The position numbers were made by a program, and so were the translations under genes. A stretch of DNA of 56,429 nt from a virus (taxonomy: Duplodnaviria; Caudoviricetes): positions 1 through 56,429 of the IMG/VR virus record IMGVR_UViG_3300032288_000938. One strand, 5' to 3'. The notes under the pieces are model-generated. The model worked only from the letters and a program-made list of their open reading frames with translations. It was not told where the DNA came from and did not search any database. The stretch's first letter is position 1. Each line of letters starts with the position of its first letter. Of the stretch, positions 7,878 through 35,132 are shown piece by piece.

Positions 7878-7952
7878 TGGTGCCGGGTGAGAGGATTGAA
7901 CTCCCGACCTTCGGTTTACAAAACCGCTGCTCTACCGCTGAGCTAACCCGGC
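7878..7952 (-). tRNA. tRNA-Thr(TGT)
   Basis: GCCGGGTTAGCTCAGCGGTAGAGC...TT-TGT-AA loop...GGGAGTTCAATCCTCTCACCCGGCACCA; cloverleaf with CCA. Confidence 0.95.
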
Positions 7953-8237: not shown

Positions 8238-8314
<77 letters not shown>

Positions 8315-8665: not shown

Positions 8666-8931
8666 ATTGCCACCGCGATGTATGCGTAGTCTTCGTCACC
8701 AATACGCTCTTGGAAAAGCAATACAGAGCCAGTCTCATAGAACTCCCAAGCCTTTTGGGCCACCCTAAACTCAGGGTAGATCATATCACCTTTTACCATC
8801 TGTGGCATCTTGGACATTCTGTCCTTCATAAGCCAGCCACGATAGTAGCAGATCCGATGTCCCCGCTTGGCGTTTGTAGCCCAGCGGGTGAAATCTTCTG
8901 CGGTGTTGACATATTTGATACCATTAAGCAT
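8662..8931 (-). CDS. Hypothetical protein
   Basis: GGAAGGA RBS; ICYYRG and G.V.L.Q.R...Y.YIA motifs seen in alphaproteobacterial phage proteins. Confidence 0.7.
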   Translation of the reverse strand: MLNGIKYVNTAEDFTRWATNAKRGHRICYYRGWLMKDRMSKMPQMVKGDMIYPEFRVAQKAWEFYETGSVLLFQERIGDEDYAYIAVAI

Positions 8932-8987
8932 TGCTTTTCCTTCCTGCTTTAGCTATAAGAAGATAGCCAGATCAATTGGAGAAGTCA

Positions 8988-9341
8988 ATGAAAAATCGTA
9001 GCTCTTGGACAGAATATGGCGAAGGCCATTACCCTGACTGCCATTATGAGGGGCGGCAATGGCCCGGAAGTGTAAGAGAACTGGTTCTAAACGGCTTCGC
9101 AGACGGAACGTATTTGCGGCAGCTTTATCCAATCCGCTATATCGAAACCGCGTTGTCCGTAAAAAAAGACTCAGAGATAAGGCGGTCAACAAGCAAGACT
9201 TGCTCAAACTGCGCGAATTGGATTGAAACAGACGCCTCGTCCTATGAAGGACTTTGCGCCTCTGAACATAGTTTAGCCGCCACCGCAGATACGGTGGAGG
9301 CTCAGTTCTCGTGCAAGCACTGGAGGGCGAAGGAGTATTAA
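8988..9341 (+). CDS. Counter-oriented hypothetical protein with C-terminal Cys cluster
   Basis: GGAG RBS; CSNCANW...GLC...SCKHW; fills the gap between minus-strand genes. Confidence 0.55.
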   Translation: MKNRSSWTEYGEGHYPDCHYEGRQWPGSVRELVLNGFADGTYLRQLYPIRYIETALSVKKDSEIRRSTSKTCSNCANWIETDASSYEGLCASEHSLAATADTVEAQFSCKHWRAKEY

Positions 9342-10405: not shown

Positions 10406-10651
10406 TCAGTACCAGTTTTCGGTCTTGCTAAGGGCATCAACGACTTCCTGAACCGTGTGTTTAACGAACAGGGTATTTGTCTTCTTGCTCATCTTGTTCA
10501 GGGTGTGGGTAATAACCGAAACCCCGGCGTCCTCCGGATGTTGCTCCACAGCCATAATGTTGCTGGGACGAAGGGCGACAGGGACCCCCCGGAGAGAATT
10601 AAAGATAATCATTTTGACTCCTGCTTTGCCAATTTTGTATGTGTGGGACAA
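10406..10651 (-). CDS. Hypothetical protein (start may be 10612)
   Basis: ORF in operon; V....I.AVE and V.HTV.EV pattern. Confidence 0.55.
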   Translation of the reverse strand: MSHTYKIGKAGVKMIIFNSLRGVPVALRPSNIMAVEQHPEDAGVSVITHTLNKMSKKTNTLFVKHTVQEVVDALSKTENWY

Positions 10652-11022
10652 TACGAACTCCCAGCTTCTTTGTCGTGGCCACAGAATAACAGATCTTGCG
10701 GCTCACCCGCAACCCACCGGCAGTGGTTTTGCTCCAACTCCCAGATCTTTACACCGACCCCGTTCAAGGGGATTACCTTGATTTTGGGCGGGCGCACGGG
10801 CTTGATGACCTTTGGTGGACGGAAGCGGATTTTAACCGGGAATCCGGATTTCTCCCGGTAAGGCAAACAAAGGCCGAGCCGATTAGCCCTACCAATAACT
10901 GCATTTCTTGTTTTCCCAAACCTTTTAGCCAGTTCCGTGGCTGACGTTTTCCGATAGTGAAGCCTAAGAATGTCGTCCTGCTCAGGCGTCCATTCAATTG
11001 AGACTACGTTTTGCCCGCTCAT
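10609..11022 (-). CDS. gcrA: GcrA-like cell-cycle transcription regulator
   Basis: WTPEQ...SATELA...TRNAVIGRANRLGL HTH plus ELEQNHCRW..GEP...FCG...SYCPTH. Confidence 0.9.
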   Translation of the reverse strand: MSGQNVVSIEWTPEQDDILRLHYRKTSATELAKRFGKTRNAVIGRANRLGLCLPYREKSGFPVKIRFRPPKVIKPVRPPKIKVIPLNGVGVKIWELEQNHCRWVAGEPQDLLFCGHDKEAGSSYCPTHTKLAKQESK

Positions 11023-11215
11023 GAAGTTCCTCCAAGATTGACATCTCAAGTGTCGCCACAAATGTCTTCATAAGGAAGGACGCATCAAGATCGCTTTCCA
11101 CATTGTGCAGAATAACGCTAGAGCTTCCCTCCTTAACCCCGAGGATAAGGACCACATCGAGATCCAGTCCCATAGCCTCTTTCAGGAGTTCCTTAGCGTT
11201 GCCTTCATCGGTCAT
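10994..11215 (-). CDS. Hypothetical protein
   Basis: ORF with overlapping junctions in operon. Confidence 0.55.
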   Translation of the reverse strand: MTDEGNAKELLKEAMGLDLDVVLILGVKEGSSSVILHNVESDLDASFLMKTFVATLEMSILEELHERAKRSLN

Positions 11216-13978: not shown

Positions 13979-14071
13979 TTATATCTCAAGGTCATCGCTG
14001 AACACAGCCACGACTGCACCCAAAGCGTAGACTATTCCAAGTACGAAGCCATAGATCAGCGCGCTCGTCAT
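13979..14071 (-). CDS. 30-aa transmembrane micropeptide
   Basis: MTSALIYGFVLGIVYALGAVVAVFSDDLEI; fills operon gap. Confidence 0.45.
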   Translation of the reverse strand: MTSALIYGFVLGIVYALGAVVAVFSDDLEI

Positions 14072-14157
14072 AACAAAACCCCGCCAATGTGCCTGCGGCA
14101 ATACGCCTTCGGCTTCTTTGACGGGGTTTTAACACGCGAGGACATTGCTGTCCAGAT

Positions 14158-14436
14158 TTATTTGCGGGATTTGCCCGAACCGGGTTCTGTCATGTATTTG
14201 GACACGATCTTGTCGGTGAGCATTTCCTCAAGGTCATCAATCCTGCATTTGAGGTCAAAGTTGCGCTCAACGAGGGTGTTGATGTTGTCGCTCAAATCCC
14301 GGATCCAGCGTTCAAGCTTCTCAATATCATTGCCGTGGCCAATCAAGGTGGATCCAGAGAAGCAAATAAGAAGCACGATTGAGATTGCACCAATTACCGC
14401 GAGTACAATTAAAGCGATTTCCATAGGGTTCTCCAT
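14158..14436 (-). CDS. Membrane-anchored coiled-coil protein
   Basis: Start MENPME just downstream of promoter; TM then coiled coil. Confidence 0.55.
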   Translation of the reverse strand: MENPMEIALIVLAVIGAISIVLLICFSGSTLIGHGNDIEKLERWIRDLSDNINTLVERNFDLKCRIDDLEEMLTDKIVSKYMTEPGSGKSRK

Positions 14437-14448
14437 TTTTGAAACCCC

Positions 14449-14477
14449 GTTATACGTGAGCCGTCTCCGGCAGTCAA
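14449..14477 (-). promoter_or_regulatory. Sigma70-type promoter for leftward small-gene operon
   Basis: TTGACT-17 nt-TATAAC. Confidence 0.75.
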
Positions 14478-14656
14478 TAACATATACCCCCGTGGGTGTG
14501 GGACTCCAGAAAAAAAAGAAGGGGGTGGGTTTCCCTAGAATGGGTTTTGTGGGGGTTGGGGAAAAGTGGGTCATCGGATGTGGGGAATAATATGTATACA
14601 CGACCCGGCTCGACCACGCCGATTTGCCCCTCCCCCCTCCGGGTGGGGTGCTGCCA

Positions 14657-14671
14657 GAACAAATCGTGAAC
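14657..14671. promoter_or_regulatory. Alphaproteobacterial LexA (SOS) box
   Basis: GAAC-AAATCGT-GAAC matches GAAC-N7-GAAC; intergenic. Confidence 0.6.
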
Positions 14672-14707
14672 CGCTCATTCCGGGCCGCATTGCACCCCGC
14701 ATTGACG

Positions 14708-14730
14708 TTCGGTAATTGGCGATTACCGAA
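14708..14730. repeat. Perfect 9-bp inverted repeat downstream of terS
   Basis: TTCGGTAAT-TGGCG-ATTACCGAA. Confidence 0.6.
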
Positions 14731-14743
14731 GAAACCTTGCGGA

Positions 14744-15262
14744 TCAATGGTTTGCGTAACGCTTGAGCCGCTCGACTAGCTCGCGCTCGATATCAGCGGC
14801 ACTGCCTGCCTGCACTTCCACCTTATCGGTCACCATCCCGGCAAGCTTGGCGGCTAGTGCTGCCGCGCTGACCTTAACGGCGGCAGGTGTTTTCTCGCCT
14901 TCCAGCACATCCCAGACCTGTTTCCAGATCCGATCCTCCGCCCGAGCAGCTACAAGCTGTTTCTGGGCCTGTTTGGCCCTTAATAGCTCCTCCACCCTCA
15001 TTGCCACCTTAGGGTGCTGTGCAAGCTTGCAGGCCTCAGTGTGAACCACTGCCGCCGCCATCCCATCCGCATTGTATGCTGATCGGTATGCCTCTGAATT
15101 AGTTGCGCCATTGGCGAGCGCCTCGGCGAATGCTTCCTGTTTCAGCGTCAGCCCTGATGCCGCCTTTCCCACCGGCCCCGGCTCCACTTTTGCCTTTGGC
15201 TTGTCTTTCCCGCCGTCGATCACCCGCAGCAGGCCTTCTATCGCCTTGTCATCGTCTGTCAT
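14744..15262 (-). CDS. terS: Terminase small subunit
   Basis: LT.KQEAFA...G...SEAYR.AY...A.KL..HPKV..R HTH signature. Confidence 0.85.
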   Translation of the reverse strand: MTDDDKAIEGLLRVIDGGKDKPKAKVEPGPVGKAASGLTLKQEAFAEALANGATNSEAYRSAYNADGMAAAVVHTEACKLAQHPKVAMRVEELLRAKQAQKQLVAARAEDRIWKQVWDVLEGEKTPAAVKVSAAALAAKLAGMVTDKVEVQAGSAADIERELVERLKRYANH

Positions 15263-15452
15263 GTGCCTTGCCTTAATTCCAGGAGCTGCGCCCTGATGTA
15301 TATCCGCCCCTATGTGTGGGGCTGCCTGTTGTGTGTTTCAGTATAGCATGGGCGGCTTCTATCCCCTCAAACGCCGGGTGGCTTTCGGGGTTTTGAAATT
15401 GCGGGGCTTTTAAGATAATTCCCCGCAATGGGCGGTCAATCTCTTTTTGTTA

Positions 15453-15506
15453 TTGACCGTACCAACCCAACCCATATAAAACCGGATTGTTACCGCTCTT
15501 TGAAAT
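15453..15506 (+). promoter_or_regulatory. Early promoter with boxA-like element
   Basis: TTGACC-16-TATAAA then GCTCTTTGAAAT (15495-15506); -35 lies in inverted repeat CGGTCAAT/ATTGACCG. Confidence 0.6.
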
Positions 15507-15812
15507 TGCAAATATGAGCCTTTGGCCCGCGCGATTTACGCCCGCGCGCTGCCAAAACGCCGGGGGTGCTGGCCCCTTAGCAAATCAAGCCAGCCGACGA
15601 AACGCAATGCGGGCAGATGGAACCCGTATCACTGGCCCGGCAAATCGGGGCGGGTGTGCAAAACCACACCAGTGCAAGCGAAAGCTTGACAGCGGGAAAT
15701 AAACCGCTGAAACGCCGCTGATTTAGGGTGCATTGCGTGGAGGGAAAGCGCTGGAACGGGCCGCAAGGCCCGTTCCCCTGCGAAAGCCCGGCAATCAGGC
15801 CGGGCTTTTTCA
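15481..15812 (+). ncRNA. Candidate ~330-nt structured RNA / early leader
   Basis: Many stems with GAAA/GCAA loops, long-range ACGCAATGC/GCATTGCGT, terminator AAAGCCCGGC/GCCGGGCTTTTT. Confidence 0.6.
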
Positions 15813-15825
15813 AGGGAACCAAACC

Positions 15826-15948
15826 ATGCAGCACGACGCCCATGTGAAAGCTTTTTACGCCTATTCAATATTGGCCGCACGACGCGACGCGGGCGCGCGA
15901 TTGCCGTGGGAAGGATGGGGCGACAATGGCCAATGGTGGTTAAAGTAA
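15826..15948 (+). CDS. 40-aa early peptide
   Basis: AAGGGA RBS; MQHDAHVKAF...WWLK. Confidence 0.45.
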   Translation: MQHDAHVKAFYAYSILAARRDAGARLPWEGWGDNGQWWLK

Positions 15949-15986
15949 GTAAAACAATTAATTCCAACCAAGAAAGGGAATGAAAC

Positions 15987-16244
15987 ATGCTAACCGAGGA
16001 ACAAATCGCCAATCAGGCCGAAATTTACAATGGCCGCGCCAATATTGCCGAAATTAACCGGCTTTATCGGGCGCAGGATGAAAGCCACCTATTCCCGATT
16101 TGCGGGAAATTTAACGCCACCGAGCGGGCTATTCGCAAGGCTCGCAAATTTCAATCCGAGGCCGGGGCGGTTTACGGGTTGGAATATTGTTATCTGCTCT
16201 CCGAACTAATCTCCGAGGCCGTGAACGGCCCGGACGCATACTAA
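15987..16244 (+). CDS. Early hypothetical protein
   Basis: CAACCAAGAAAGG leader shared with next gene. Confidence 0.65.
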   Translation: MLTEEQIANQAEIYNGRANIAEINRLYRAQDESHLFPICGKFNATERAIRKARKFQSEAGAVYGLEYCYLLSELISEAVNGPDAY

Positions 16245-16268
16245 TCGCAACCAAGAAAGGAAAAAACC

Positions 16269-17147
16269 ATGAGTAAGTTCAACGCATACGCAGAAGTCAC
16301 CGCAACGGTTCTGGAAGCTATGAAAACAGGCTCGACGCCATGGGTGAAACCATGGCGCGATTTACCAGCGGATCAATCTGGAACGCCCCACAATGCCTTG
16401 ACGGGCCGGGCGTATCGAGGGATCAATAGCTTGTTAGGCTGGATCGCCGCTGAAAAGCATGGCTTTAGCTCGCAAGGTTGGCTCACCTATAAACAGGCGC
16501 TCGAATTGGGCGGCAATGTCAGGAAGGGCGAAAAGGCCCGGCTTCAGGTTGTTTTCTTTAAGCAATTGCAGATTAAAGAAAAGGACAAGGCCGGAAATGA
16601 CGCGCTAAAGAAAATTCCGCTCATCAAGCTTGCCAGTGTGTTCAATGTAGATCAATGCGAAGGCTTGACCTTGCCCAAGCGCAGGACGCCCGCGACACGC
16701 CCGACAAATGCGGATGATCTAGTCAAGGCCATGGCCGAACGGCTCAAAATGAGGCTAAGCATTGCGGGGAACCGGGCTTGTTATATGCCCACGCTCGACC
16801 TTGTACAAATGCCACCCGCCGGGGCGTTCAATGAAGATGCAAGCGCGCTGGCAACATTTTTCCATGAGGCCGGGCATTGGACCGGACATAAAACCCGGCT
16901 CAATCGGGATTTATCCGGGCGGTTCGGAAATGCGGCCTACGCTTTCGAGGAACTAGTCGCGGAATTGACTAGTGCTTTCCTTTGTGCGGCAAACAAGGTC
17001 AACGGGCAATTGCAGCACCCCGAATACTTGCGCCATTGGATCACGGTCATGGAGGGTGACGACAAAGCCTTCATGAAGGCCGCTTCCCTTGCGCAGGCTG
17101 CCGCTGACTATATCAACAAGAGCGAGGAAGTAGAGGAGAGCGAATAA
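16269..17147 (+). CDS. ardC: ArdC-like antirestriction protein (DUF1738 ssDNA-binding plus zincin-like domain)
   Basis: PWVKPW, YRGIN, WLTYKQA..LGG.VRKGEK, VFNVDQ, HEAGHWTGH..RL.R, YAFEELVAEL. Confidence 0.9.
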   Translation: MSKFNAYAEVTATVLEAMKTGSTPWVKPWRDLPADQSGTPHNALTGRAYRGINSLLGWIAAEKHGFSSQGWLTYKQALELGGNVRKGEKARLQVVFFKQLQIKEKDKAGNDALKKIPLIKLASVFNVDQCEGLTLPKRRTPATRPTNADDLVKAMAERLKMRLSIAGNRACYMPTLDLVQMPPAGAFNEDASALATFFHEAGHWTGHKTRLNRDLSGRFGNAAYAFEELVAELTSAFLCAANKVNGQLQHPEYLRHWITVMEGDDKAFMKAASLAQAAADYINKSEEVEESE

Positions 17148-17211
17148 TCCCCTGCGGGGGCTGTCGGGGTTCTAAAAAAACCTTGACGGCCCCGCAAATC
17201 TTCGCTAATAA
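17146..17211 (+). promoter_or_regulatory. Repeat-plus-promoter module, copy 1
   Basis: 26-bp AATCCCCTGCGGGGGCTGTCGGGGTT then TTGACG-17-TAATAA. Confidence 0.75.
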
Positions 17212-17241
17212 ACAATCACCGAACAACAGGAGAGCAGGATC

Positions 17242-17955
17242 ATGACCGCATTTATCTTCACTAGAATTTCCCGCAATGCAAAGACCGGCCCTATCCCGGT
17301 CACAACTACCAGCAAAGATAGCTGCCCGAACGATTGCCCATTTCAAGGCTCGGGATGCTATGCAGAAGCAGGCCCGCTTGGGGCTATCTGGCGGGGCCTC
17401 ACTAAAGCCGGGCCGGATGCAGAATTTCCCAACGGGCGCAACAAAATGGCAAGCCTTGGGTTGGATGCTCTTTTGAAGCACATCCGCAAGCTCCCTGCCG
17501 GGCAATTGTGGAGACACAACCAAGCCGGGGATCTCGTACCCATGCCCGGCACTGGAACAATCGACCGCGACATTTTGAGCAAGCTTGTAGCCTCAAACAA
17601 AGGCAAGCGAGGTTTCACCTACACCCACCACAATGTGCTTCAAAACGAGCAGAACAGGCAGGCCGTGGCGGACGCTGTCAAGGAAGGTTTCGTTATAAAC
17701 CTTTCCGCCAATAACTTGCGCCATGCGGATGCTTTGGCCGATTTAGGAATTGCGCCGGTTTGCACGGTCCTACCCGCCAACGTGATGCAAAACACGACAA
17801 CACCCGCCGGGCGCAAGGTTGTAATCTGCCCGGCTGTTACACGTGATGATGTTTCATGTGAAACATGCGGGCTTTGCGCTAGGTTGCGGGAGGCCATTAT
17901 TGGTTTCCCGGCTCATGGTCCTTCTAAGGCTAGGGCTGGGGCTATTGCGGCATAA
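17242..17955 (+). CDS. Cys-rich putative metal/Fe-S phage protein
   Basis: NAKTG...SCP..CP...GCYA, WRHNQAGD, FTYTH, CPA...C..C.LC. Confidence 0.75.
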   Translation: MTAFIFTRISRNAKTGPIPVTTTSKDSCPNDCPFQGSGCYAEAGPLGAIWRGLTKAGPDAEFPNGRNKMASLGLDALLKHIRKLPAGQLWRHNQAGDLVPMPGTGTIDRDILSKLVASNKGKRGFTYTHHNVLQNEQNRQAVADAVKEGFVINLSANNLRHADALADLGIAPVCTVLPANVMQNTTTPAGRKVVICPAVTRDDVSCETCGLCARLREAIIGFPAHGPSKARAGAIAA

Positions 17956-18009
17956 ATCCCCTGCGGGGGCTGTCGGGGTTTTGACTTTGTCTTGCGTGTT
18001 CGCTAATAA
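17955..18009 (+). promoter_or_regulatory. Repeat-plus-promoter module, copy 2
   Basis: Identical 26-bp repeat then TTGACT-17-TAATAA; shares TTCGCTAATAA with copy 1. Confidence 0.75.
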
Positions 18010-18037
18010 TTCAACACCGATCAAATGGAGGTTTGAA

Positions 18038-18214
18038 ATGGACGTTGTTTCACAAATCATGGCTTACGAAGATGGCTCGCTCGATGAAGCTGGCTCGTTG
18101 GAGCTTTTCCAGCACCTAGTGGATACCGGGCTGGCTTGGCAACTACAAGGACACTATGGACGCACGGCACAACATCTAATTGATGCCGGTATCATCAACG
18201 CGAAGGAGGACTAA
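18038..18214 (+). CDS. Conserved small phage protein
   Basis: FQHLVDTGLAWQLQG.YGRTA; GGAGG RBS. Confidence 0.75.
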   Translation: MDVVSQIMAYEDGSLDEAGSLELFQHLVDTGLAWQLQGHYGRTAQHLIDAGIINAKED

Positions 18215-18217
18215 ACC

Positions 18218-18622
18218 ATGGGACTTGATATGTATCTGTCGGGCCGGAAGGTTCCGCGCTTTGACTTCGAGAACAATGTGGCCACCCGCACCGAGGATGG
18301 CTTCGATCTGGGCCATGTGGAGCTGAAGCTGGCCTACTGGCGCAAGCACGCCGACCTTCACGGCTACATTGTGGAGACGTTCGCGGACGGGGTGGACGAG
18401 TGCCAAGAAATCAATCTTTCCGCCGCAGACTTGCGCCAGATGATTGAGGCTATCAAGGCCGGTAAGCTGCCCGAGACTGAGGGTTTCTTCTTCCGGTATG
18501 ATGGTTATTCCCCTGCTGAGTTTGCTGCCGAGGATGTTCAGAAGCTGGAGAAGGCCCTTGAATGGCTCAACACCAAGCTCGATAATGAGTGGCGGTGTCT
18601 GGTGTATCAGGCAAGCTGGTAA
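18218..18622 (+). CDS. Conserved phage protein (MGLDMY...YWRK...YQASW type)
   Basis: Family motifs, GFFF; AGGAGG RBS. Confidence 0.8.
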   Translation: MGLDMYLSGRKVPRFDFENNVATRTEDGFDLGHVELKLAYWRKHADLHGYIVETFADGVDECQEINLSAADLRQMIEAIKAGKLPETEGFFFRYDGYSPAEFAAEDVQKLEKALEWLNTKLDNEWRCLVYQASW

Positions 18623-18673
18623 CACGCTGCGCTGGCGTCGGGGTTTCAAAATCAATCAACAATGGAGGGTTGA

Positions 18674-18880
18674 ATGTTCTATGTTTACAACTGCACGGAC
18701 GGCAAGCTAGAAGCCGCATGGCGCACAGTCAACGAGGCCGTGGATAGCTGCCAATATCTGACAAAGACACACGCAAAGCAATATTGGGTTCTGGCACGTG
18801 TCTATGACAGCGAGACATACCACAATCAACGGCACGAGGCTCGGATGCAGGCCGAGTTTGACAAATACGGGACCGATTAA
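18674..18880 (+). CDS. Early hypothetical protein
   Basis: GGAGG RBS. Confidence 0.65.
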   Translation: MFYVYNCTDGKLEAAWRTVNEAVDSCQYLTKTHAKQYWVLARVYDSETYHNQRHEARMQAEFDKYGTD

Positions 18881-18890
18881 GGAGAGATCA

Positions 18891-19076
18891 ATGGCTTACC
18901 ATGTAGCAAGAACGAAAGCTAAACCCGGCGAGATCTGGGGCCACCGTTTCACCAATCTGCGCGATGCAATGGTGGCAGCGGAGGAACTCACCCACGACAG
19001 GGGAGAGGCTCACACCGTGTGGGAATTAAAGCAACTCTGGACAGCGGAGGCGGATCATGGAGAGGCGTTGGCTTAA
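18891..19076 (+). CDS. Early hypothetical protein
   Basis: AAGGAG RBS at MAYHV. Confidence 0.65.
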   Translation: MAYHVARTKAKPGEIWGHRFTNLRDAMVAAEELTHDRGEAHTVWELKQLWTAEADHGEALA

Positions 19077-19275
19077 TGAGATCGAGCGCGCCCTGAACCC
19101 TCACGGGATCAGGATTGTTAGTCACAAGGATGGCAAGAAACACGCAAAGATCATGGTGACGGATGGCAAATCAACTCGGTTTATTGTCGTTTCTGTATCA
19201 CCAAGCGACCACCGGGCGACCATGAACATTGTCCAGAACGCGAAAAGGATGCTAAACGCGAGCATCGCAAGATGA
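19057..19275 (+). CDS. Small HicA-like (dsRBD-type) protein
   Basis: GKKHAKI...SVSPSD.R...N pattern; GGAGG RBS. Confidence 0.5.
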   Translation: MERRWLNEIERALNPHGIRIVSHKDGKKHAKIMVTDGKSTRFIVVSVSPSDHRATMNIVQNAKRMLNASIAR

Positions 19276-19472
19276 CGACCTACACCAACAGCATCGCTGG
19301 GTACATCATGCAGGCGTATGATGAACTACCTCAAAGGCTGCGAGAACTGGTGCGGGAAAATGTGGAATTAAAACTGGACCCCGCCCTCTTTATTATTGCT
19401 TTAGAGGACGGGATGAGCGAAGATGAGATCATTAATCTGACAAAAAATGGGAGGGGATGGTGGATGACATGA
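19272..19472 (+). CDS. Hypothetical protein
   Basis: M.AYD.LP..LR motif; ATGA overlap. Confidence 0.6.
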   Translation: MTTYTNSIAGYIMQAYDELPQRLRELVRENVELKLDPALFIIALEDGMSEDEIINLTKNGRGWWMT

Positions 19473-19675
19473 TAGGTTTTGGCAGGCCCGTTCTTGTGCG
19501 GACAAGGCATGAGCTTTTCGGGGGCGTGATCGCCGGGGGTTGGCATGACAAGCACAGCGGTTTGGCTGGGCCGGTTGTGAGAACGCCAGACGGTGCTTTT
19601 GTAAACACCGACTGGAAGCGCATTGTGCGCTACACGGACACGGACGAAATCCCGTGGCAGATTTGGAGGAAATGA
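19469..19675 (+). CDS. Hypothetical protein
   Basis: ATGA overlaps at both ends. Confidence 0.55.
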   Translation: MIGFGRPVLVRTRHELFGGVIAGGWHDKHSGLAGPVVRTPDGAFVNTDWKRIVRYTDTDEIPWQIWRK

Positions 19676-19746
19676 TGCTTGGAATTGTCTTGGTAATGCT
19701 GTTTGGATTTCTTGCCTTCATCAACTACATCTTCGAGGAGGAATAA
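19672..19746 (+). CDS. 24-aa transmembrane micropeptide
   Basis: MMLGIVLVMLFGFLAFINYIFEEE; GGAGG RBS; fills gap exactly. Confidence 0.6.
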   Translation: MMLGIVLVMLFGFLAFINYIFEEE

Positions 19747-19983
19747 ATGGACGATGATGGCTTGTTGGAACGTATCTATATTCTTGGCGAACAACTCACC
19801 GCCGAGATAATCGACCGCACGAACGGCAAAGGTCATTTGATTCTCGGAAGTCTTGCGGTGATCCTTGCCAACCTCGAGGCTCAGCATGAGGGGACAATCA
19901 AAGATGTCCTTGAAGGAACAAAGCTCATTCTGGCTATAAGTAGGGCAGAGGGCGCGGTTCCGGGTAATGATACCATGAACTAA
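19747..19983 (+). CDS. Hypothetical protein
   Basis: GAGGAGG RBS. Confidence 0.6.
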   Translation: MDDDGLLERIYILGEQLTAEIIDRTNGKGHLILGSLAVILANLEAQHEGTIKDVLEGTKLILAISRAEGAVPGNDTMN

Positions 19984-19985
19984 AG

Positions 19986-20015
19986 AAAAAGGGCGGGGAA
20001 ATCCCCGCCCTTTTT
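19986..20015. terminator. Bidirectional intrinsic terminator
   Basis: AAAAAGGGCGGGG-AAAT-CCCCGCCCTTTTT between convergent operons. Confidence 0.9.
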
Positions 20016-27322: not shown

Positions 27323-27761
27323 GATCCGCGATATTGCGATTAACTTCGAGGCCGTGAAGGTCTCAATGAACCAAGACAAGAATGGCCTGATGCTCAAGCT
27401 CGCCATTCATCCCTCTGACGCGCCGCAAGATCTTGTTGTTGCACCCGTCGGCACCCGCTATATGATTGCTGCCGTAATGCTGAACGACCAAGACGAACCA
27501 ACGATGGGCGTCAAGAAACGTGAAGCGGACACGGTTATATCAATTGCAGGGGCCTTATGTCGTAACAATCGCTTTCAGGATTGGCTGGAGGCAACGGGCC
27601 TTGCGCTTGAGAGTTCCGAGAAGGCTGCCGTTGATGCTGTTCGTGATTTCTGTGGCATCAAATCGCGCAGCGAGTTCTCGACAAACGAAAGCGCGCGCAC
27701 TAAGTTCATGGCGCTGCGTGAACAGTTTGAAGCTGATTATAAAAAGGGGAAGGTAAGATGA
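27315..27761 (+). CDS. Conserved phage protein
   Basis: FEAVK, L.IHP.D.P, GTRY, AG.LC....FQ.W, CGI.SRSE. Confidence 0.75.
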   Translation: MTEIRDIAINFEAVKVSMNQDKNGLMLKLAIHPSDAPQDLVVAPVGTRYMIAAVMLNDQDEPTMGVKKREADTVISIAGALCRNNRFQDWLEATGLALESSEKAAVDAVRDFCGIKSRSEFSTNESARTKFMALREQFEADYKKGKVR

Positions 27762-28570
27762 AAGTAGTTGAAGTCGTCCGCGAATACGCCCGGTCCCGTC
27801 GGTTCACAAACCTTTCCGATAGCACAAAGCGCCAGTATATCTCATCAATGAATGAGATCGAGAAGGCGGTTGGCCAAATGGATATTCAGAGCGTCAAGAG
27901 GCGGGATCTTGTCCGGGCATTTGAGGCATTGGGCGATACGCCAGCCATGGCTAATCGCTTCTGCCGGGTGTGCAGCGTTGTATTCAACTATGCAGTGGAG
28001 ATGGAGTATTGCGGTGGGAACCCCGCCCATCGGCTGACCCCGTTTAAGCTCGGCACGTGGAAGCAATGGACGAAGGAAGAAGTGGACAAGGTGATCGCCC
28101 TTAACCACCCTATCGTAAGTGTGGCTGTTGCTCTGGCCTATTACACGGCGCAGAGAGAGGCAGACATTCTTAAGATGAAATGGTCAGACATCAAGGACGG
28201 GGTTTTGTATGTTAAGCAAAACAAAACCGGGGCTGTCCTTGAGATTATGGTTGCGCCGCAGTTGCAGGCCATTCTGGATAAGCTGCCTAAGACAGGGGAA
28301 CACATCATCCGTTCCAAGGCAGGGGGCCTCGTAACCGGGCCATCGTTCCGGAATATGCTCAAGCGCGTCACGCGGTCTGTCGGGGTTGACGCCCCGTTCC
28401 ACGGATTGCGTAAGACTGTTGGATCGCGCTTGGCAGAGAAGGGCAAAAGCGCAAGTCAAATCGCCGCCATCCTCGGGCATCGTACCCTAAAAATGGCGGC
28501 GCTTTATACGCAACAGGCTGACAGCAAGAAGCTTATCGCCTCTGCTGTCACCTCCCTAGCTGCTGATTGA
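27758..28570 (+). CDS. int: Tyrosine recombinase/integrase
   Basis: R (AQREAD), K (QNKTG), HGLR, LGH and Y (ALYT) catalytic set. Confidence 0.9.
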   Translation: MKVVEVVREYARSRRFTNLSDSTKRQYISSMNEIEKAVGQMDIQSVKRRDLVRAFEALGDTPAMANRFCRVCSVVFNYAVEMEYCGGNPAHRLTPFKLGTWKQWTKEEVDKVIALNHPIVSVAVALAYYTAQREADILKMKWSDIKDGVLYVKQNKTGAVLEIMVAPQLQAILDKLPKTGEHIIRSKAGGLVTGPSFRNMLKRVTRSVGVDAPFHGLRKTVGSRLAEKGKSASQIAAILGHRTLKMAALYTQQADSKKLIASAVTSLAAD

Positions 28571-31500
28571 TTTCATCAATGCGTTGGGTTACGCGGGCTT
28601 CGCGGGAGCGGAGTTCGCGTAGCTTTTCCAGTTTCTGAGACATGGGCGTAACCTTGTCTGCCTCAAGGCGGCGAATCTGGGCGCGGATGTTGTTGAGATT
28701 ATCGGCCATCTTGCGGACCTGTTTGCCCACCCGCAGGACGTTAATGTTTTCCTCGCGGTATTCTCTCAGGGCCTCAGTGTCGCCCATTTTTTTCAGGCGC
28801 GAGATGGTGCGGTTAACCTTATCAACAAGCTGATAAAGCTCATACGCCTCGGTAGCCGCCTGTGGCTGCTTGTCGCGGGCATCCACAAAGAAGCGGCGGA
28901 TGACCGGCAATTGAGACCCCGCAACCGGAAGGCCCTGATTATCAGATCCAAACATATAGGCAGCGCCGCCAATACCCATGCCAATGTAGCTCATGATTGG
29001 GCCACCATAACCGGATATTAGATTGTCAAGCTTGATCGGGCTGATCGGCACAAAACGACCTTCTTCAAAGTCATAGTTGAACGGAAGGAAGCCTGAAAGC
29101 TGACTAAGACCCCGCGCCACATAAGATGTGGAGGCGTTGTATTGCAGGGATGGATCAAGCTGCTCCATGCCGGGCGAGACAAGGGGCTGCCCGGTGTAGA
29201 AATCACGGTTAATCATATTCTCGACAATGGGCAGTGCAGCCTGCGGGATTGGGTTAAACCCAAAAGTGCTGGAGAACTGATTGAACATCAGCTTTGTGGC
29301 AGACCTCATGCTGCGGTTGCCCATGGCCACATCGTAGAAAGTCTGTGGCACGGTCATGAACAAGAAGCCTGCTTCGAACGGCTTCGGGATTTGGAAATAC
29401 TGCCCCTTCTGTCCGGGTATCGGGATCAGAATGTTTGCGTCCTTGATGTATTGAGGAAGCTGTTGATAATCCTCGTCATCTTCAAGGAGCAGTGAGAGGG
29501 CCATCGCTGCGGCTGTTAGTGCCATACCACGGACAAGAACGTGTGTGCCGCGCTGGCGCTCAAATGAAAGCTGCTCACGCCCGGTGACTACGCCTGCGGC
29601 AGCCTTCATGCCCGTGTAGAGAACATCAAAGCCTTGGATGCGCGCGTTCAAGAAGGGAACCATGCGTGTCCACATCCTCAACCCGGCACTGTGACCAGAG
29701 CGAGAGAAGTTCATAATGCTCAACGCGCGGTAGGCTGCGGTAAAGTCGCTGGCCCCATCGCGCTTTGCTGCATCGTAAACCGCAATGCGTGTGGCTGCGT
29801 CTGAAGCTTCGGACCAAGATCCGAGCTTGTCCCACGCTCCCGTCAGGGCTGATGTCATGTTTGGCAGGCCCTGAACTCTTGTCAGCTTTTTGCGCATACC
29901 GGCGACAATCTTCGCCATCGGCTTTTGCGCCTCGTCAAAGGAGCCGACAATGCCATAACTGCGGAGGGCTTCGAAGGATGCGGACGAATTGAGCGCGCTA
30001 ACAAACCCCTTGAATGTTTGGAACGGATTAGCCCCAGAGCCAGCGAGGACCCAAGTGGACACCGAGTCGCGCATCAGGTTGGCGACCATGAAGCCGGGGT
30101 CGCGAGTAACCATTTCGCGGAGGAAGTTTGCGGGCATACCGGCCAACTCCAAGAACAGGCTTGGGGAGGCGAAGTCATTGCCGGAAAGACCAATGGTGAA
30201 CAGTGGGTCCCTTGAAGCGAACGGAACCTCAACGCCATTGATATATGTATAAAACGTCTTATCGTCAAACCCGTCTGCGCGGCTTGGCGTTTCGATGGTC
30301 ACGTTACCATCTTCATCTTCAAAAGCCCGCAACCGCTTAACCACACCTGTGGCTTCGCCAACACGAAACGCCTTTTGAGTAGCCAATGTGCGAAGGATTA
30401 CGTTGTTCCAGAAGGCAACATTGTGCATCATGGCAACGATTGGGTCTGCCATCAGATTGCCGGTTGTGCTGCCTTCATATGGCTTAAAGCGGATGCGCGA
30501 GGCAAGGCCTCCAGAGGTTTCCTGTACAACATCGCCTTCTTCAAGCTGGCGGTACATGCTGTAATAATTCTGCTGGTCGGTGAACTCTTCAAAAAGTTCC
30601 TGAGAAAGGTAGCCACTATCGCGGACCGCCTCAAGCAGCTTCGTATTGAAACGCTGGTATGACTCAAATGCTTCCTTGATGATTGGGTATTGCTCCGCAA
30701 GGGCATCTGCCGCATCAATGTATTCTTGCGTGATGTCTTCTGGAATTTCCTTGCCCTCGGACAAGCGCCTCTTTGACACTTGGGCTACTGCATAGCTGCG
30801 GAATTGTTCGGTAAGATCCCCGCCTCCGGGGCCACCAGTGATGATTCTTTCAAGAACCTTCAGTGGGGAGTCAGCCTGATCCCTTTCAATGTACATATAG
30901 GCCGAGTTTGGGTCAGCCCCCTTACTGATTGAAACCGCCTCGCGCTTCTCATTCAAACCCCGAATTACGGGAGCGCCATGGTACGCAGCTTCCACCGTGT
31001 AGTGGCTTGAGCGTTGCATCATGTCGGCAGCTTGGGTCGCCGAGTATTCTGCAAATTGAGCTTCGTCGGGATTCAGTGCGCCTGTAAGAAACGCCTCACG
31101 CTCTTTCTTCGTGATCTGCCCCGTTTTTTGGACATAATAAACGCGGAACATATCGGCGAGCCTGCCAATGCCTTCACGGCTGCTGATGCCACCGAGAACA
31201 CCCATGAGTTTTTCACCGGGCGTAGAGGCAACATGTGTGGCGGCAAAGATGCGCTTGTTCGCATCTTCCATCTCCGGTGGCATGGGTATAACTTGCGGGA
31301 TCGTAGACAGCTTGCGGACTGCATCCCTGACGGACTGATTGGCCAAGTCAACGTCTGCTTGTGTTGCTTCTCCGGATTTTGTTACATTTTCCGCGATGTC
31401 AACCGCAGTTTTTATTTCAGTCGTGATGCTGGGAATTACTGATAGCTTAATGTTTTCTTCTTCTGGACTAAATGTTCCACGGTTGCTCGTAGATTTAATT

Positions 31501-34500
31501 TGCGTGGCCTTAAATGCAATGTAACTATCGCTACCTTTGTCCTCGTATTGGTTGCGGTATACGATCCCATCATAACCTTCGGACTTTGCCTGAGCTATAG
31601 CTTGATCCCATTCTCCATTTGCCCCACCAAGGTCTGCCATCCGTTTTGGGTTTTGCATTGACAAGTACGCAGATGTTACCGTCCCCAACTCAAGAGGGTC
31701 AGTATCGTCGTTGGCAATCATCTCTAATACATTTGAGCGGCCATGCGCGAGGGCTGTTTCTTGATCCTGAAATCCAACAAACCCAAGCTCTTCGGATGTG
31801 ACTCCGTCTGTATCAAAGTGCCAAAGCCCATCATCATTTTGATATGTTTCAACACCCATTGCGGCGTCATCGGCGCGCTTTCCAGTGGCGCGGTCAATCG
31901 CAGCTTGCCTTGTTCCAAAGTGCATTCCGCTCCTTGGAATATCTTCGTCCTCATTGAATGACCCAAAGTGATGAACAACGAGCGGCTTGCCCTGCTCATC
32001 AAGAACCTTGCTGCGTTTGAACCAGTTTTTGAACTCTTTTGTTTCCACAGCAGGAGCAATGGAGAACTTGCGGGCGGCGGCTTGTGGGGCGGTCACCACT
32101 ACAGATGTCTTGCCTACACCCGGCCCCTTTTCCACCGTGTAGCCATCCGGCACCAAAGATTTTACATAGTTGACAAGCTCTTGACCGTCATATCCTTTTT
32201 GATAGACGTATTTTTTCTCTTTCCGTTCAAAAACCCAATAAGCTTTCGGCTCTTTTGCTTTCTTAAAGTTCTTTGTGCGGTCAATGTCATCCTTGAATGC
32301 GCGAGAACCAATAATTGCGATCCCGCCCGGCGCAACCTTTTTAACGATGTCACGAACAACTTGATCGCGCAGTTCTGGCTCCAAAACATTTACAACATTC
32401 AAGCTAACGACGGCATCATACCTGTCCTTGATTTGGCTTGATTTTGTAAAGCTGGGTGGGATTTTACTCTCCCACTTCTTTGTATTGATTTCATAGGTGT
32501 CTACTGGGGCGGAGTTTTCTTCACGCATAGCGTCAGCGCCAAGTCCCAGACCGGCACCATAATCCAAAACATTCCTCGCCAGCGGAAGGTTTTCCTTGAT
32601 GTAATTTGCAGCTTTCCTGTACGACCCAATAGTTATCGCACGTTGCGTTGAATCAGAACCTTCTTGTCCCGGAATGTCACCTTCATCTTCCGGCAGCGCA
32701 GACAGTTTGCGAACCCCGCCCTCAACAGCGCGAGCTTCGCGAGCGCCAATCTTGCCAGCCTCAATATCCTTGAAGATCTGGCCAATCTTGGCGTCACGAT
32801 AGCCATTGAACAGGCGCTTGAAGAACTCGACAACGCGACCGAACACACCCTTCGGTGTACCTTCCAGCTTGAGCTTGCCAGCGCGGGCGTCACGGAACAT
32901 TTCCGCAACTGCCTCTTCGTGGATCATCTCCTCATTGAGAGAGCCGTCGGGGTTCTTGTAGCCTTCAACGGTGGCGTACATCCGAACCGCGCGGTCGTAA
33001 TAGGTAAATTGGTTGCCTTGGTATTTGGTCCGTTCGGCAGCCTTGAAGAGCGTGGACAGTTCCCCACCCTTGAACAAGCCAAGGTTGGACAGCGAGTGAA
33101 TGACCTCATGGTTCATCACATCAAACAGCTTGTCCACCATCTGGTCGGTGGTGAGGTTTGGATCATAGAGATTGTACGAAAGATATATTACATCTCCCGC
33201 TGGTGACGCCGCGCCCTCGGCGATACCCTTCCCCTGACGAACAACATCATCAAGTTGAATGCGAACATTCTTGCCCACGATGGGTGCAAGCCGGGCATTG
33301 AGGGCCTTTGATACGGCATCCTTCTTCGCCTCGAACTCTTGCAGTTTTTGGACGCCCTCTGGCGCAGTCACGACGGGCTTAAATAAAGCCTGTAGGGACG
33401 GCTTATATTCTTTGGGTGGCTTGGCTGCTGGTTGTTCTTGAACAGCCGCTGGCGGTGCCTCTGTGGGGCTTACAGGGGCTACTGCGGGGGTTGCCTGCGG
33501 CGCTGTCGGGGTTTCAACGGTGGCTGCCGGGGAGGGGAAAATGGACGCCATCGGCGGGCGCACCGGAATACCACCGGGGATGGCGGGCTGTTCGGCTTGG
33601 CTGATTGCAGGCTGTGTCTGGGGAGGAGGGATCTCGGCTGCCGTGGTGGATACCGGTGGAGGTGCCACGCCCTCGGGGGGCGGGGCCTCGACTGGCGCAA
33701 TGCGCTTCTTCTTCCCCTTCTTGGGGACAGCGGGTGTCGCAATCTCGGCGGCCTGTATCGGCGTCGCACCGACTTGCTGGATAGTTTCAGCAATGGCTGC
33801 CCCTGTGGTAGCTTGGCCAACCGGGGTTGTTGGCAATTGAGCCGGAGCGGGAGCCAAGGCACCAGCAGCCTTAAGCTCCTTGGCGATCTTCTTACCCTGC
33901 GCCTTTTCTTGTTTAGTTGTCTTGCCTTTGGTTGTGCGCGCAGCTTCTGCAATCGTCGGACGAACAAACGTCACAGTGCCGGGGCTGTCTTTTTCATACT
34001 GCTCGGCGGCTAAGAATGCGGCATCTTTTGTGCTGAATGTAGCGGCGGGCTTGCCGGTAGAGTCAACAATTTTGTAATTGAACCCCTTCTCGGTATTGTC
34101 TGCCAGCTTGATGCTAATTTCACCACTAGGCGCATTCTTAAGAAGTTCGTCACGACCAGCGATAGCTTCTGCCCGGATGCGTTCTGGTGTCTTTTCGGCA
34201 GCCTGCCGAGCGTTTTCCTTCTCAAGCTGAGTAAATGCAGTGCGCATTTTGCCAGCCTTGCGGCCAGCCATAAGCTGAAGGATAACGTCAAGCGTACCAC
34301 CAGCCGCACCGCCGACGCCTGCGTTTGAGAGGATGCCCTCTGTAATGTCAAGGTCGGGGTTATAGTAACCCTGCTCAACAAGATTCTGAGCGCCTTGCGC
34401 GATGGCTTCCTGCGCGCCTTCTTCTGTGGCAGAAACAAGCGCACGCTTGACGGCATTTTCCACAGTTTTTGCAACCCCGCCTGCTTTTGACACGGGGACG

Positions 34501-35132
34501 CGAGCAAGGATCTCCTCAAGGGGTCCCATGAACCTACCGAGAGGAATAATATCCGTGAGGCCGATAGCCCCGCCAAGACGCTGTGATGCGAGGCGGTCTT
34601 CTGGGGAGACTTCAGCCCCCGTCTGAGCCTCTTCAGCCATGCGACTTTGGATTTGTTGAGTTGTCCCAAGGGGGACCGACTGCGCACCGGCTGCGGCATA
34701 TCCAAGTCCGCGAGCCAGCTTAGCACCCGTTCCAAGAACCTTTGCCCCTTTTGCAATAGCAGTGCCGGGGACAAGAAATGAAGCAAGGCTACCAAGGCCA
34801 CCAGCGACAGCTTCAGCCGTCGTGGCTTCCTTGGTTGGGTCAATCCCGAGAATGTCTTGAGTTATTTTTTTAGCGCCGGTACTAAATTTCCCTGCTGCCG
34901 TTTCTTCTGGCTTGGCAGAGAAAAGACCAGCAACGCCAAGGGGTACGTCAGTAAACCCGGTAACAAACCCCTCTGCCAAAGACGGCAATACTCCTCCGCG
35001 CCCGGTGGGTGCAGAACCCTGTCCAATTTTGGGGAGGATGTCGGTTTCAATTGCAGATGCGATCTGCGTGTCCGACATTGAGTCCGGAAACTCGACATTC
35101 CCGAGTCCGGGGACCTCAACGATCTTTGGCAT
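28548..35132 (-). CDS. Large polyvalent internal virion/ejection protein (zincin-like peptidase, SAM methyltransferase, ART-like, LPD38-like)
   Basis: HEVIH...EEAVAE; LDYGAGLG and YDAVVSLNVVNV; FKNWF...GKPLVV...HFG...GYDGIVY...QIKS; IPKPFE.G. Confidence 0.8.
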   Translation of the reverse strand: MPKIVEVPGLGNVEFPDSMSDTQIASAIETDILPKIGQGSAPTGRGGVLPSLAEGFVTGFTDVPLGVAGLFSAKPEETAAGKFSTGAKKITQDILGIDPTKEATTAEAVAGGLGSLASFLVPGTAIAKGAKVLGTGAKLARGLGYAAAGAQSVPLGTTQQIQSRMAEEAQTGAEVSPEDRLASQRLGGAIGLTDIIPLGRFMGPLEEILARVPVSKAGGVAKTVENAVKRALVSATEEGAQEAIAQGAQNLVEQGYYNPDLDITEGILSNAGVGGAAGGTLDVILQLMAGRKAGKMRTAFTQLEKENARQAAEKTPERIRAEAIAGRDELLKNAPSGEISIKLADNTEKGFNYKIVDSTGKPAATFSTKDAAFLAAEQYEKDSPGTVTFVRPTIAEAARTTKGKTTKQEKAQGKKIAKELKAAGALAPAPAQLPTTPVGQATTGAAIAETIQQVGATPIQAAEIATPAVPKKGKKKRIAPVEAPPPEGVAPPPVSTTAAEIPPPQTQPAISQAEQPAIPGGIPVRPPMASIFPSPAATVETPTAPQATPAVAPVSPTEAPPAAVQEQPAAKPPKEYKPSLQALFKPVVTAPEGVQKLQEFEAKKDAVSKALNARLAPIVGKNVRIQLDDVVRQGKGIAEGAASPAGDVIYLSYNLYDPNLTTDQMVDKLFDVMNHEVIHSLSNLGLFKGGELSTLFKAAERTKYQGNQFTYYDRAVRMYATVEGYKNPDGSLNEEMIHEEAVAEMFRDARAGKLKLEGTPKGVFGRVVEFFKRLFNGYRDAKIGQIFKDIEAGKIGAREARAVEGGVRKLSALPEDEGDIPGQEGSDSTQRAITIGSYRKAANYIKENLPLARNVLDYGAGLGLGADAMREENSAPVDTYEINTKKWESKIPPSFTKSSQIKDRYDAVVSLNVVNVLEPELRDQVVRDIVKKVAPGGIAIIGSRAFKDDIDRTKNFKKAKEPKAYWVFERKEKKYVYQKGYDGQELVNYVKSLVPDGYTVEKGPGVGKTSVVVTAPQAAARKFSIAPAVETKEFKNWFKRSKVLDEQGKPLVVHHFGSFNEDEDIPRSGMHFGTRQAAIDRATGKRADDAAMGVETYQNDDGLWHFDTDGVTSEELGFVGFQDQETALAHGRSNVLEMIANDDTDPLELGTVTSAYLSMQNPKRMADLGGANGEWDQAIAQAKSEGYDGIVYRNQYEDKGSDSYIAFKATQIKSTSNRGTFSPEEENIKLSVIPSITTEIKTAVDIAENVTKSGEATQADVDLANQSVRDAVRKLSTIPQVIPMPPEMEDANKRIFAATHVASTPGEKLMGVLGGISSREGIGRLADMFRVYYVQKTGQITKKEREAFLTGALNPDEAQFAEYSATQAADMMQRSSHYTVEAAYHGAPVIRGLNEKREAVSISKGADPNSAYMYIERDQADSPLKVLERIITGGPGGGDLTEQFRSYAVAQVSKRRLSEGKEIPEDITQEYIDAADALAEQYPIIKEAFESYQRFNTKLLEAVRDSGYLSQELFEEFTDQQNYYSMYRQLEEGDVVQETSGGLASRIRFKPYEGSTTGNLMADPIVAMMHNVAFWNNVILRTLATQKAFRVGEATGVVKRLRAFEDEDGNVTIETPSRADGFDDKTFYTYINGVEVPFASRDPLFTIGLSGNDFASPSLFLELAGMPANFLREMVTRDPGFMVANLMRDSVSTWVLAGSGANPFQTFKGFVSALNSSASFEALRSYGIVGSFDEAQKPMAKIVAGMRKKLTRVQGLPNMTSALTGAWDKLGSWSEASDAATRIAVYDAAKRDGASDFTAAYRALSIMNFSRSGHSAGLRMWTRMVPFLNARIQGFDVLYTGMKAAAGVVTGREQLSFERQRGTHVLVRGMALTAAAMALSLLLEDDEDYQQLPQYIKDANILIPIPGQKGQYFQIPKPFEAGFLFMTVPQTFYDVAMGNRSMRSATKLMFNQFSSTFGFNPIPQAALPIVENMINRDFYTGQPLVSPGMEQLDPSLQYNASTSYVARGLSQLSGFLPFNYDFEEGRFVPISPIKLDNLISGYGGPIMSYIGMGIGGAAYMFGSDNQGLPVAGSQLPVIRRFFVDARDKQPQAATEAYELYQLVDKVNRTISRLKKMGDTEALREYREENINVLRVGKQVRKMADNLNNIRAQIRRLEADKVTPMSQKLEKLRELRSREARVTQRIDEINQQLGR

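Follow-up and report, generated by a model that had tools for sequence, protein, structure and literature searches.

The window, meaning the whole 56,429-base stretch of DNA analysed here, is the complete virus record IMGVR_UViG_3300032288_000938 and represents a complete 56.4-kb temperate phage. Its minus strand carries the structural and packaging genes (major head protein, portal, large terminase and small terminase), and the small terminase gene, terS (14744-15262, assigned by Pfam and PHROG scans), is read leftward from its start at 15262. Between this start and the first rightward ATG at 15826 lies a 563-bp gap, which holds the element that is our subject: a non-coding leader, about 325 nt in its predicted transcript, that extends from a promoter to an intrinsic terminator. 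The operon downstream of it, on the plus strand, consists of small open reading frames (ORFs), an ArdC-like anti-restriction gene (16269-17147, plus strand, identified by family scan), DUF7227 and DUF7417, with two small ORFs separating the leader from the ArdC-like gene. An earlier note on this DNA, made from the sequence alone, had described a non-coding region running from promoter to terminator at the head of this operon, and the coordinates, codon scores and Rfam results all agree with that description. Taken as a whole, its observation was partly confirmed and the interpretation placed on it partly supported.

The features of the gap are as follows, with structures predicted by folding and L003 denoting a relative described below.

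15392-15402 and 15499-15509, plus strand: direct repeat TTTGAAATTGC, 11 bp and exact, its copies 107 bp apart and bracketing the rightward promoter
15412-15439, minus strand: sigma-70-like promoter of the leftward terS operon (TTGACC, 16-nt spacer, TATCTT), its -35 box kept in L003
15433-15459, no strand: palindrome CGGTCAAT-N11-ATTGACCG, containing the -35 boxes of both divergent promoters
15453-15480, plus strand: sigma-70-like rightward promoter (TTGACC at 15453-58, 16-nt spacer, TATAAA at 15475-80)
15495-15506, plus strand: boxA-like word GCTCTTTGAAAT, paired inside a small hairpin (15495-15519)
15521-15556, plus strand: hairpin TTTGGC.CGCGCG / CGCGCG..GCCAAA, with variants 15537 T>G and 15550 T>A in loop and bulge
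15562-15577, plus strand: hairpin GGGGGU-GCUG-GCCCCU of the minimum free energy (MFE) fold
15590-15745, plus strand: structured core, made up of a long-range helix, a junction helix and three hairpins
15602-10/15730-38, plus strand: 9-bp long-range helix, also found as an inverted repeat
15635-52/15713-29, plus strand: junction helix
15653-70, 15675-88 (GAAA loop) and 15690-15709, plus strand: core hairpins
15753-15776, plus strand: 10-bp hairpin GGAACGGGCC-GCAA-GGCCCGTTCC, also found as an inverted repeat and directly preceding the terminator
15782-15810, plus strand: intrinsic terminator, with an 11-pair stem GAAAGCCCGGC/GCCGGGCUUUU (15782-92/15799-809), a 6-nt loop AAUCAG and the U run UUUUU at 15806-10
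15812-15828, plus strand: ribosome-binding site AAGGGA and first ATG (15826); the site can pair with 15772-77, in the 3' arm of the preceding hairpin

Non-coding status and predicted fold of the leader

The ORFs within the leader gave codon scores of -0.18 and -0.15, values typical of wrong frames; 62-codon pieces of real genes, used as a control, scored 0.29 +/- 0.13, and 0.6% of them fell below 0. Neither Pfam nor PHROG families were matched by these ORFs, no similarity was found to the ORF at the same place in L003, and C15659>T, a substitution present in relatives, introduces a stop into the 34-codon leader ORF. The codon scores and the empty family searches exclude a protein-coding reading. 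Beyond the terminator, the first ORF (15826-15948, 40 codons) also has a non-coding-like codon score (-0.08), although the alignment with L003 takes in its ribosome-binding site and ATG; convincing genes begin with 15987-16244 (codon score, 0.25).

The leader belongs to no described RNA family. A search of the whole window with Rfam 15 at gathering thresholds returned only 2 tRNAs, as would fit the novel RNA that the earlier note had proposed. When E values up to 10 were admitted for 15250-16000, there were 13 weak sub-threshold matches (best E, 0.15), 12 of them on the hairpin and terminator at 15729-15829. A tRNA-like reading of the four-way junction was rejected on the grounds that ARAGORN and Rfam report only the two known tRNAs. 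A single-sequence covariance model of the core, R1, found no other copy in 58 other loci or in pLS20, and in a DNA search of a phage collection 15263-15986 was unmatched and 14000-20000 gave one 107-nt match. A narrow full-text literature search found no description of the element, a result that does not by itself establish its absence from print.

The leader is predicted to fold unusually well. A 336-nt stretch has a folding energy of -149.8 kcal/mol (z-score, -3.74), and none of 100 dinucleotide shuffles was as stable. The excess stability is located in the core at 15590-15745 and in the two 3' hairpins: the core reaches a z-score of -3.66 on the plus strand, where 0 of 200 dinucleotide-preserving shuffles were as stable, and -2.70 on the minus strand. 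The 5' third (15486-15600) is unremarkable, with a z-score of -0.64. Among 1124 GC-corrected 250-nt windows, 15601-15850 ranks first on the plus strand (z-score, -3.23) and second on the minus strand. The GC content of the leader is 0.594, versus 0.532 for the genome.

The elements listed in the earlier note are all present where it placed them, among them TTTGGC/GCCAAA (15521-26/15551-56), the 9-bp long-range helix, CAAGC-GAAA-GCTTG (15675-88), the hairpin capped by GCAA at 15753-76 and the terminator stem with its U run. The sequences GCTGGC and GCCAGC also occur, at 15568-73 and 15589-94, but the hairpin drawn from them is not in the MFE fold, which prefers to pair 15562-67 with 15572-77. 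The long-range contact suggested for its loop proved weaker than stated: the 6+4 bp pairing of 15574-87 with 15719-28, interrupted by a bulge, competes with a better nested 7+4 bp pairing that the latter segment forms with 15635-48 in the MFE fold; the loop sequence of the 15568-94 hairpin is moreover changed in X4, one of the near relatives introduced below. As for the description of the RNA as GNRA-rich, two GNRA-capped hairpins in ~330 nt of leader do exceed the genome rate (42 in 112,858 nt, both strands), though richness here amounts to two loops.

Conservation and exchange among relatives

Contigs (consensus sequences) from four freshwater metagenome runs were aligned to 14700-16400 of the window, and the substitutions that they carry bear directly on the predicted fold. 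None of the 15 leader substitutions listed in these near relatives breaks a pair of the plus-strand MFE fold, whereas 3-4 of the same 15 break pairs on the minus strand. In a random-placement simulation, the probability of no disruption was 0.01 for the 9 tabulated substitutions and about 5e-5 or less for 13-15. Substitutions at 15537, 15550, 15659 and 15663 fall in loops or bulges, those at 15606 (in the 9-bp long-range helix) and 15691 change A-U to G.U, and that at 15681 turns the GAAA loop into GCAA; in X4, G15564-C15575 becomes U.G and G15562.U15577 becomes G-C, both read from a 30-letter loose end aligned by eye. The core variants listed (15606, 15659, 15663, 15681 and 15691) are compatible with the structure. 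The plus-strand assignment made in the earlier note is borne out by these variants, by the better plus-strand z-score and by the six G.U pairs of the plus-strand MFE fold. Variation of this structure-preserving kind suggests that the body matters in this lineage, to the extent that the predicted fold is a fair model of the RNA.

The same contigs reveal how the leader is put together. X3, a contig of 1946 nt, is ~94% identical over 15499-15812 (20 differences, 1 gap), and in it 81 other letters replace 15460-98 and other sequence replaces 15813-16245. X5 retains 15745-83, has a 96-letter body in place of 15577-15744, and at the terminator position carries another hairpin with a short tract of three T after it; X4 diverges immediately after 15817. 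Judged from these alignments, the position of the hairpin plus terminator is constant, and the body, the -10/start segment and the first ORFs are evidently exchanged as cassettes.

Two near-identical IMG/VR contigs, L002 and L003, are the only ones with a comparable map, and their terS is 77% identical. Two parts of the gap align well with them: the promoter/operator block at 15323-15460 and the segment 15745-15828, which comprises the hairpin, the terminator, the ribosome-binding site and the ATG. Both hexamers of the rightward promoter are kept in L003. The hairpin at 15753-76 retains 8 of the 9 shared pairs there and has a longer stem, in the terminator stem a G-C pair is replaced by A-U, a compensatory change, and another G-C by U.G, and the extension in which the ribosome-binding site pairs with the 3' arm shows a further compensatory pair, U15773-A15818 to C-G.

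Within the promoter block, the palindrome is identical in the window and L003/L002, and its exact pattern occurs in only those 2 IMG/VR contigs; it could serve as an operator too. The direct repeat TTTGAAATTGC has only its two matches genome-wide, even with 1 mismatch allowed, and is a possible DNA site. We also note that the 8-mer ATGGGCGG occurs in 12 copies versus 3.2 expected, a number reached in 0 of 100 shuffles, and that two of the copies (15348 and 15428) lie within the conserved block upstream of terS.

Wider searches added little to this set of relatives. Three of four motif scans of IMG/VR found only the L002/L003 contigs and the fourth gave no match; among the 49 loci from a metagenome scan for terS only the same two contigs were close, a genome scan gave 2 distant loci, and six terS relatives of 39-41% identity had a different gene order. 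L068, from a more distant phage, is syntenic (ArdC, 66%; terS, 36%), and its 655-bp gap is not significantly structured (z-score, -1.6); a 132-codon ORF with a hydrophobic stretch may fill that gap. The same locus has a motif that recurs in similar form, at 1282-1340 and 2410-2465, ahead of two different ArdC-operon genes: GATCGAAACG comes first, then a hairpin, a GCAGCG...CGCTGC hairpin and CTGATGA...ATCAG. The idea that phage ArdC genes are generally preceded by a long leader was rejected, with a spring-water phage as the counterexample: the 490-nt stretch there is AT-rich and unstructured (z-score, -0.08) and has no plus-strand terminator. For a second ArdC phage we note a gap of 311 nt between annotated genes, a figure that concerns gap length only.

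Candidate roles of the leader

We tentatively favour the view that the element is an attenuating and insulating 5' leader of the rightward operon, the body of which is a lineage-specific structured RNA module. Host RNA polymerase would start at the sigma-70-type promoter at 15453-15480, probably near 15486-15488, transcribe ~325 nt of folded untranslated RNA, and then reach the GC hairpin at 15753-76 and the terminator at 15782-15810, which on the plus strand has the GC-rich stem-loop and following U run that define a predicted intrinsic terminator. Most transcripts would end there as a ~325-nt RNA, and a fraction would read through to give the early mRNA. The ORFs begin ~15-20 nt after the terminator in the window, L003 and X4 (15 nt from terminator end to first ATG in the window), and because this leaves no room for another promoter the operon would be expressed only by read-through; that need for read-through would in turn make the terminator both attenuator and insulator of the operon. 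The folded body, with its core at 15590-15745, would be kept as an RNA structure within the lineage and yet be a swappable module, and most likely it acts in cis, tuning either termination or what becomes of the leader.

Leader-terminator attenuators are found ahead of phage operons, an example being the short terminated transcript made from the late promoter of phage lambda. The layout here is the same (promoter, a few hundred nucleotides of untranslated RNA, intrinsic terminator, operon), with read-through needed and a short RNA as the default product. The leader differs from such attenuators in that no Q-like, N-like or other antiterminator protein was recognised here in Pfam and PHROG scans, in that the operon is of an early anti-restriction type, not late, and in that the leader body is unusually structured. 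It would be an element of an ordinary kind, a leader plus attenuator, with an unclassified RNA body, known from a few uncultivated freshwater phages only.

The closest match in layout is EGeRS1 of pLS20. EGeRS1, a GC-enriched, branched element of ~325 nt, immediately precedes the ribosome-binding site in ardC and other establishment operons, and it blocks upstream transcription in one orientation only, by an unknown mechanism (PMC8708921). The leader shares the GC enrichment, the branched fold, the place directly upstream of a ribosome-binding site and the ArdC-encoding operon, and it includes a terminator. The resemblance lies in layout and does not extend to descent: when 15263-15826 was compared by blastn with the 854 bp upstream of pLS20 ardC, the best E was 0.71, and model R1 gave no hit. 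The two also differ in that EGeRS1 has no detectable promoter, whereas the leader follows a conserved sigma-70-like one, in that a Bacillus plasmid is set against a phage with a probably alphaproteobacterial host, and in that two small ORFs here precede the ArdC gene. If the attenuating reading holds, the phage gates its first-expressed anti-restriction operon by a terminator behind a long folded leader, a logic that would resemble that of the GC-rich elements, as yet unexplained, that precede ardC on Bacillus plasmids. The exchange of bodies between a fixed promoter and terminator would also provide a natural set of variants that could separate insulation from active control of read-through.

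A number of points weigh against this reading. The start of the transcript, its end and its termination are all predictions from sequence, and neither end was called automatically: the promoter named in the earlier note is present as TTGACC-N16-TATAAA, but its -10 hexamer lacks the usual final T and the promoter scan gave no call, and the terminator, with only 5 U, was missed by the scan rule because its stem extends into the U tract. Nor was any factor identified that would control read-through, and no antiterminator protein was recognised in the Pfam and PHROG scans. A riboswitch-type switch was rejected, since alternative pairing of the terminator 5' arm is not above chance; the best alternative duplex in a search for a terminator/antiterminator switch (-14.5 kcal/mol) is equalled by 67% of shuffled leaders, and a forced antiterminator fold is 9.8 kcal/mol worse than the MFE. 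The ~285-nt body cannot be aligned with that of L003 (best blastn E, 0.038, on the wrong strand; tblastx E, 1.1), and the L003 body is no more stable than shuffles (z-score, +0.10), so that structure in the body is not a requirement shared by the phage group, nor does the body represent an RNA family conserved across it. The covariation controls were flat, with 250 of 500 and 128 of 500 shuffles reaching the observed values, because there are only 2 distinct sequences. Finally, the variant test concerns the variants listed, 9 of the 15 coming from the alignment table and 6 from the by-eye alignment of the 30-letter loose end; 46 further rows exist over the whole 1701-nt stretch, and the structure tested was predicted from the window itself.

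An unlikely alternative, though one with several observations in its favour, is that the ~325-nt RNA is itself the product, a free-standing early non-coding RNA that acts in trans (for instance as a decoy or regulator against the host or its defences), with the genes living on leaky read-through. The leader is a discrete unit from promoter to terminator, its structure is kept in near relatives on the plus strand specifically, relatives exchange its body as a cassette, which is common for accessory anti-defence genes, and the operon that it heads includes an ArdC-like gene. Complementary matches elsewhere in the phage do not exceed chance, however (longest exact match, 13 nt; E, 0.22), no homologue was found in the 58 other loci, and the tight spacing between terminator and first ribosome-binding site favours a role in cis. 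The immunity RNAs of P4, P1/P7 and N15, which are represented in Rfam, derive from operon leaders and are linked to premature termination; the leader resembles them as a structured leader RNA of a temperate phage in which no CI/Cro-type or other recognisable repressor was found in Pfam/PHROG scans of the ORFs tried. It nevertheless matches no Rfam family, the phage immunity RNAs of that library included, even at E up to 10 outside the terminator region, and its internal complementarity is an inferior alternative that is lost in a relative.

We give still less weight to a cis-acting RNA antiterminator of the kind represented by HK022 put or conAn2, in which the leader would bind the polymerase so that only its own transcripts pass and the terminator blocks stray transcription. 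The order of promoter, structured RNA, terminator and operon would suit it, as would the variant test, which indicates a structure under selection. Like putL and putR, the leader would emerge as nascent RNA shortly after an early phage promoter and could, by analogy, act in cis on the polymerase without a protein devoted to the task. The put RNA, however, is ~70 nt long, forms two stem-loops and is similar in sequence among lambdoid phages (PMC9378689), whereas the leader has a 156-nt branched core that lies ~100 nt from the start, and shows no significant structure in its first 115 nt. The segment 15495-15577 is predicted to form two or three hairpins but is no more stable than shuffles (z-score, -0.64), and its comparison with put is by description only.

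The conAn2 RNAs of pLS20-type conjugative plasmids are 260-600 bp long, 30-40% identical among plasmids and antiterminating (PMC8191782). The leader likewise is a large structured RNA with poor conservation, close to the start of a long mobile-element operon, and activity of conAn2 at such identities means that non-conservation with L003 need not be fatal to the idea. But conAn2 comes from Gram-positive plasmids, lies downstream of the conAn1 gene and needs ConAn1 for long range, whereas the gene upstream here is the divergently transcribed terS. The L003 body, moreover, has no excess structure, and processivity is not obviously needed with a single terminator before the operon end: the operon closes at the bidirectional terminator at 19986-20015 and contains no other strong terminator. 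Equally doubtful is a broader proposal in which the element is a swappable RNA-only module of control or counter-defence at the entry end of the phage, made first on infection, that licenses its own transcript past the terminator, as the equivalent in a proteobacterial phage of conAn2 or of EGeRS1 before ArdC genes, or decoys host defence; lineages would then carry unrelated bodies between the same promoter and terminator.

That the body is a functionless spacer, GC-rich filler that folds merely through its GC content, seems improbable. Such a spacer would account for the unrelated and not unusually stable body of L003, for the unexceptional 5' third in the window and for the modest size of the genome-wide outlier (z-score, -3.23 versus -2.89 for the next window), but it sits poorly with the failure of all 200 dinucleotide-keeping shuffles to fold as well, with listed variants that avoid helix breakage and with a genome that is densely coded outside the leader.

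Much less probable again is an element acting as DNA, whether as an origin, as an array of operators, as a packaging or end site beside terS, or as a single-strand promoter like those before anti-restriction genes of conjugative plasmids. The element does adjoin terS, both strands fold better than shuffles and direct repeats flank the promoter; yet the variants preserve pairs on the plus strand only, the plus-strand MFE has its G.U pairs, and the body is not conserved although terS is 77% identical. Instead of a single long hairpin with -35 and -10 boxes, the fold has branches, and the two half-sites of the conserved hairpin are spaced 4 bp differently in L003 and in the window, as would suit a stem but not a dimer site.

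A lambda-type nut site, at which boxA and a boxB hairpin would recruit Nus factors and a phage N-like protein, is barely credible, and we conclude that the leader is not one. The word GCTCTTTGAAAT, which the earlier note had singled out as boxA-like, is indeed present; its GCTCTTT core lies 10 nt from the predicted start, and the 5-bp GAAA hairpin at 15675-88 keeps a GNRA loop (GCAA) in relatives. A nut-like meaning is unsupported, however. GCTCTTTRA occurs at chance frequency (2 found genome-wide versus 1.18 expected), the word is absent from L003, X2, a near-identical strain, has a T inserted within it after 15498, and its 5' flank (15460-98) is swapped in X2 and X3. In the fold the word is taken up in base pairs, its 3' part falls within the 11-bp direct repeat of which the first copy precedes the promoter, and in L068 the same 7-mer lies inside a possible membrane-protein ORF. 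Instead of adjoining the word as a boxB would, the nearest GNRA hairpin, that with the GAAA loop, is ~170 nt downstream, and no N-like or Q-like family was found among the 93 window ORF translations sent to Pfam and/or PHROGs, where small unannotated proteins are possible.

Other features of the phage

Outside the leader and its flanking genes, the genome encodes a primase-helicase, a tyrosine integrase and a polyvalent protein of 2194 residues, and the following features were located.

7878-7952 and 8238-8314, minus strand: tRNA-Thr(TGT) and tRNA-Pro(TGG), found by Rfam and ARAGORN
10609-11061, minus strand: homologue of a GcrA-like cell-cycle regulator (Pfam E, 8e-21)
19986-20015, both strands: strong bidirectional terminator, a 13-pair stem flanked by A and T runs that separates the convergent rightward operon and leftward genes
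27758-28570: integrase, from Pfam and PHROG scans
28548-35132, minus strand: 2194-residue polyvalent protein with LPD38, ADP-ribosyltransferase-like and methyltransferase-like segments

The host is probably an alphaproteobacterium, as suggested by the GcrA-like gene and by the best ArdC matches, which are to alphaproteobacterial plasmids and to Caulobacter and Brevundimonas phages. The polyvalent protein and the ArdC-like gene together suggest a heavy investment in counter-defence. An 18-pair hairpin lies at 28586-28625, where the integrase gene meets that of the polyvalent protein. The second most stable stretch of the genome in the GC-corrected scan, 8700-9050 (z-scores of about -2.9 to -3.0, both strands), adjoins the two tRNA genes and is overlapped by ORFs on both strands.

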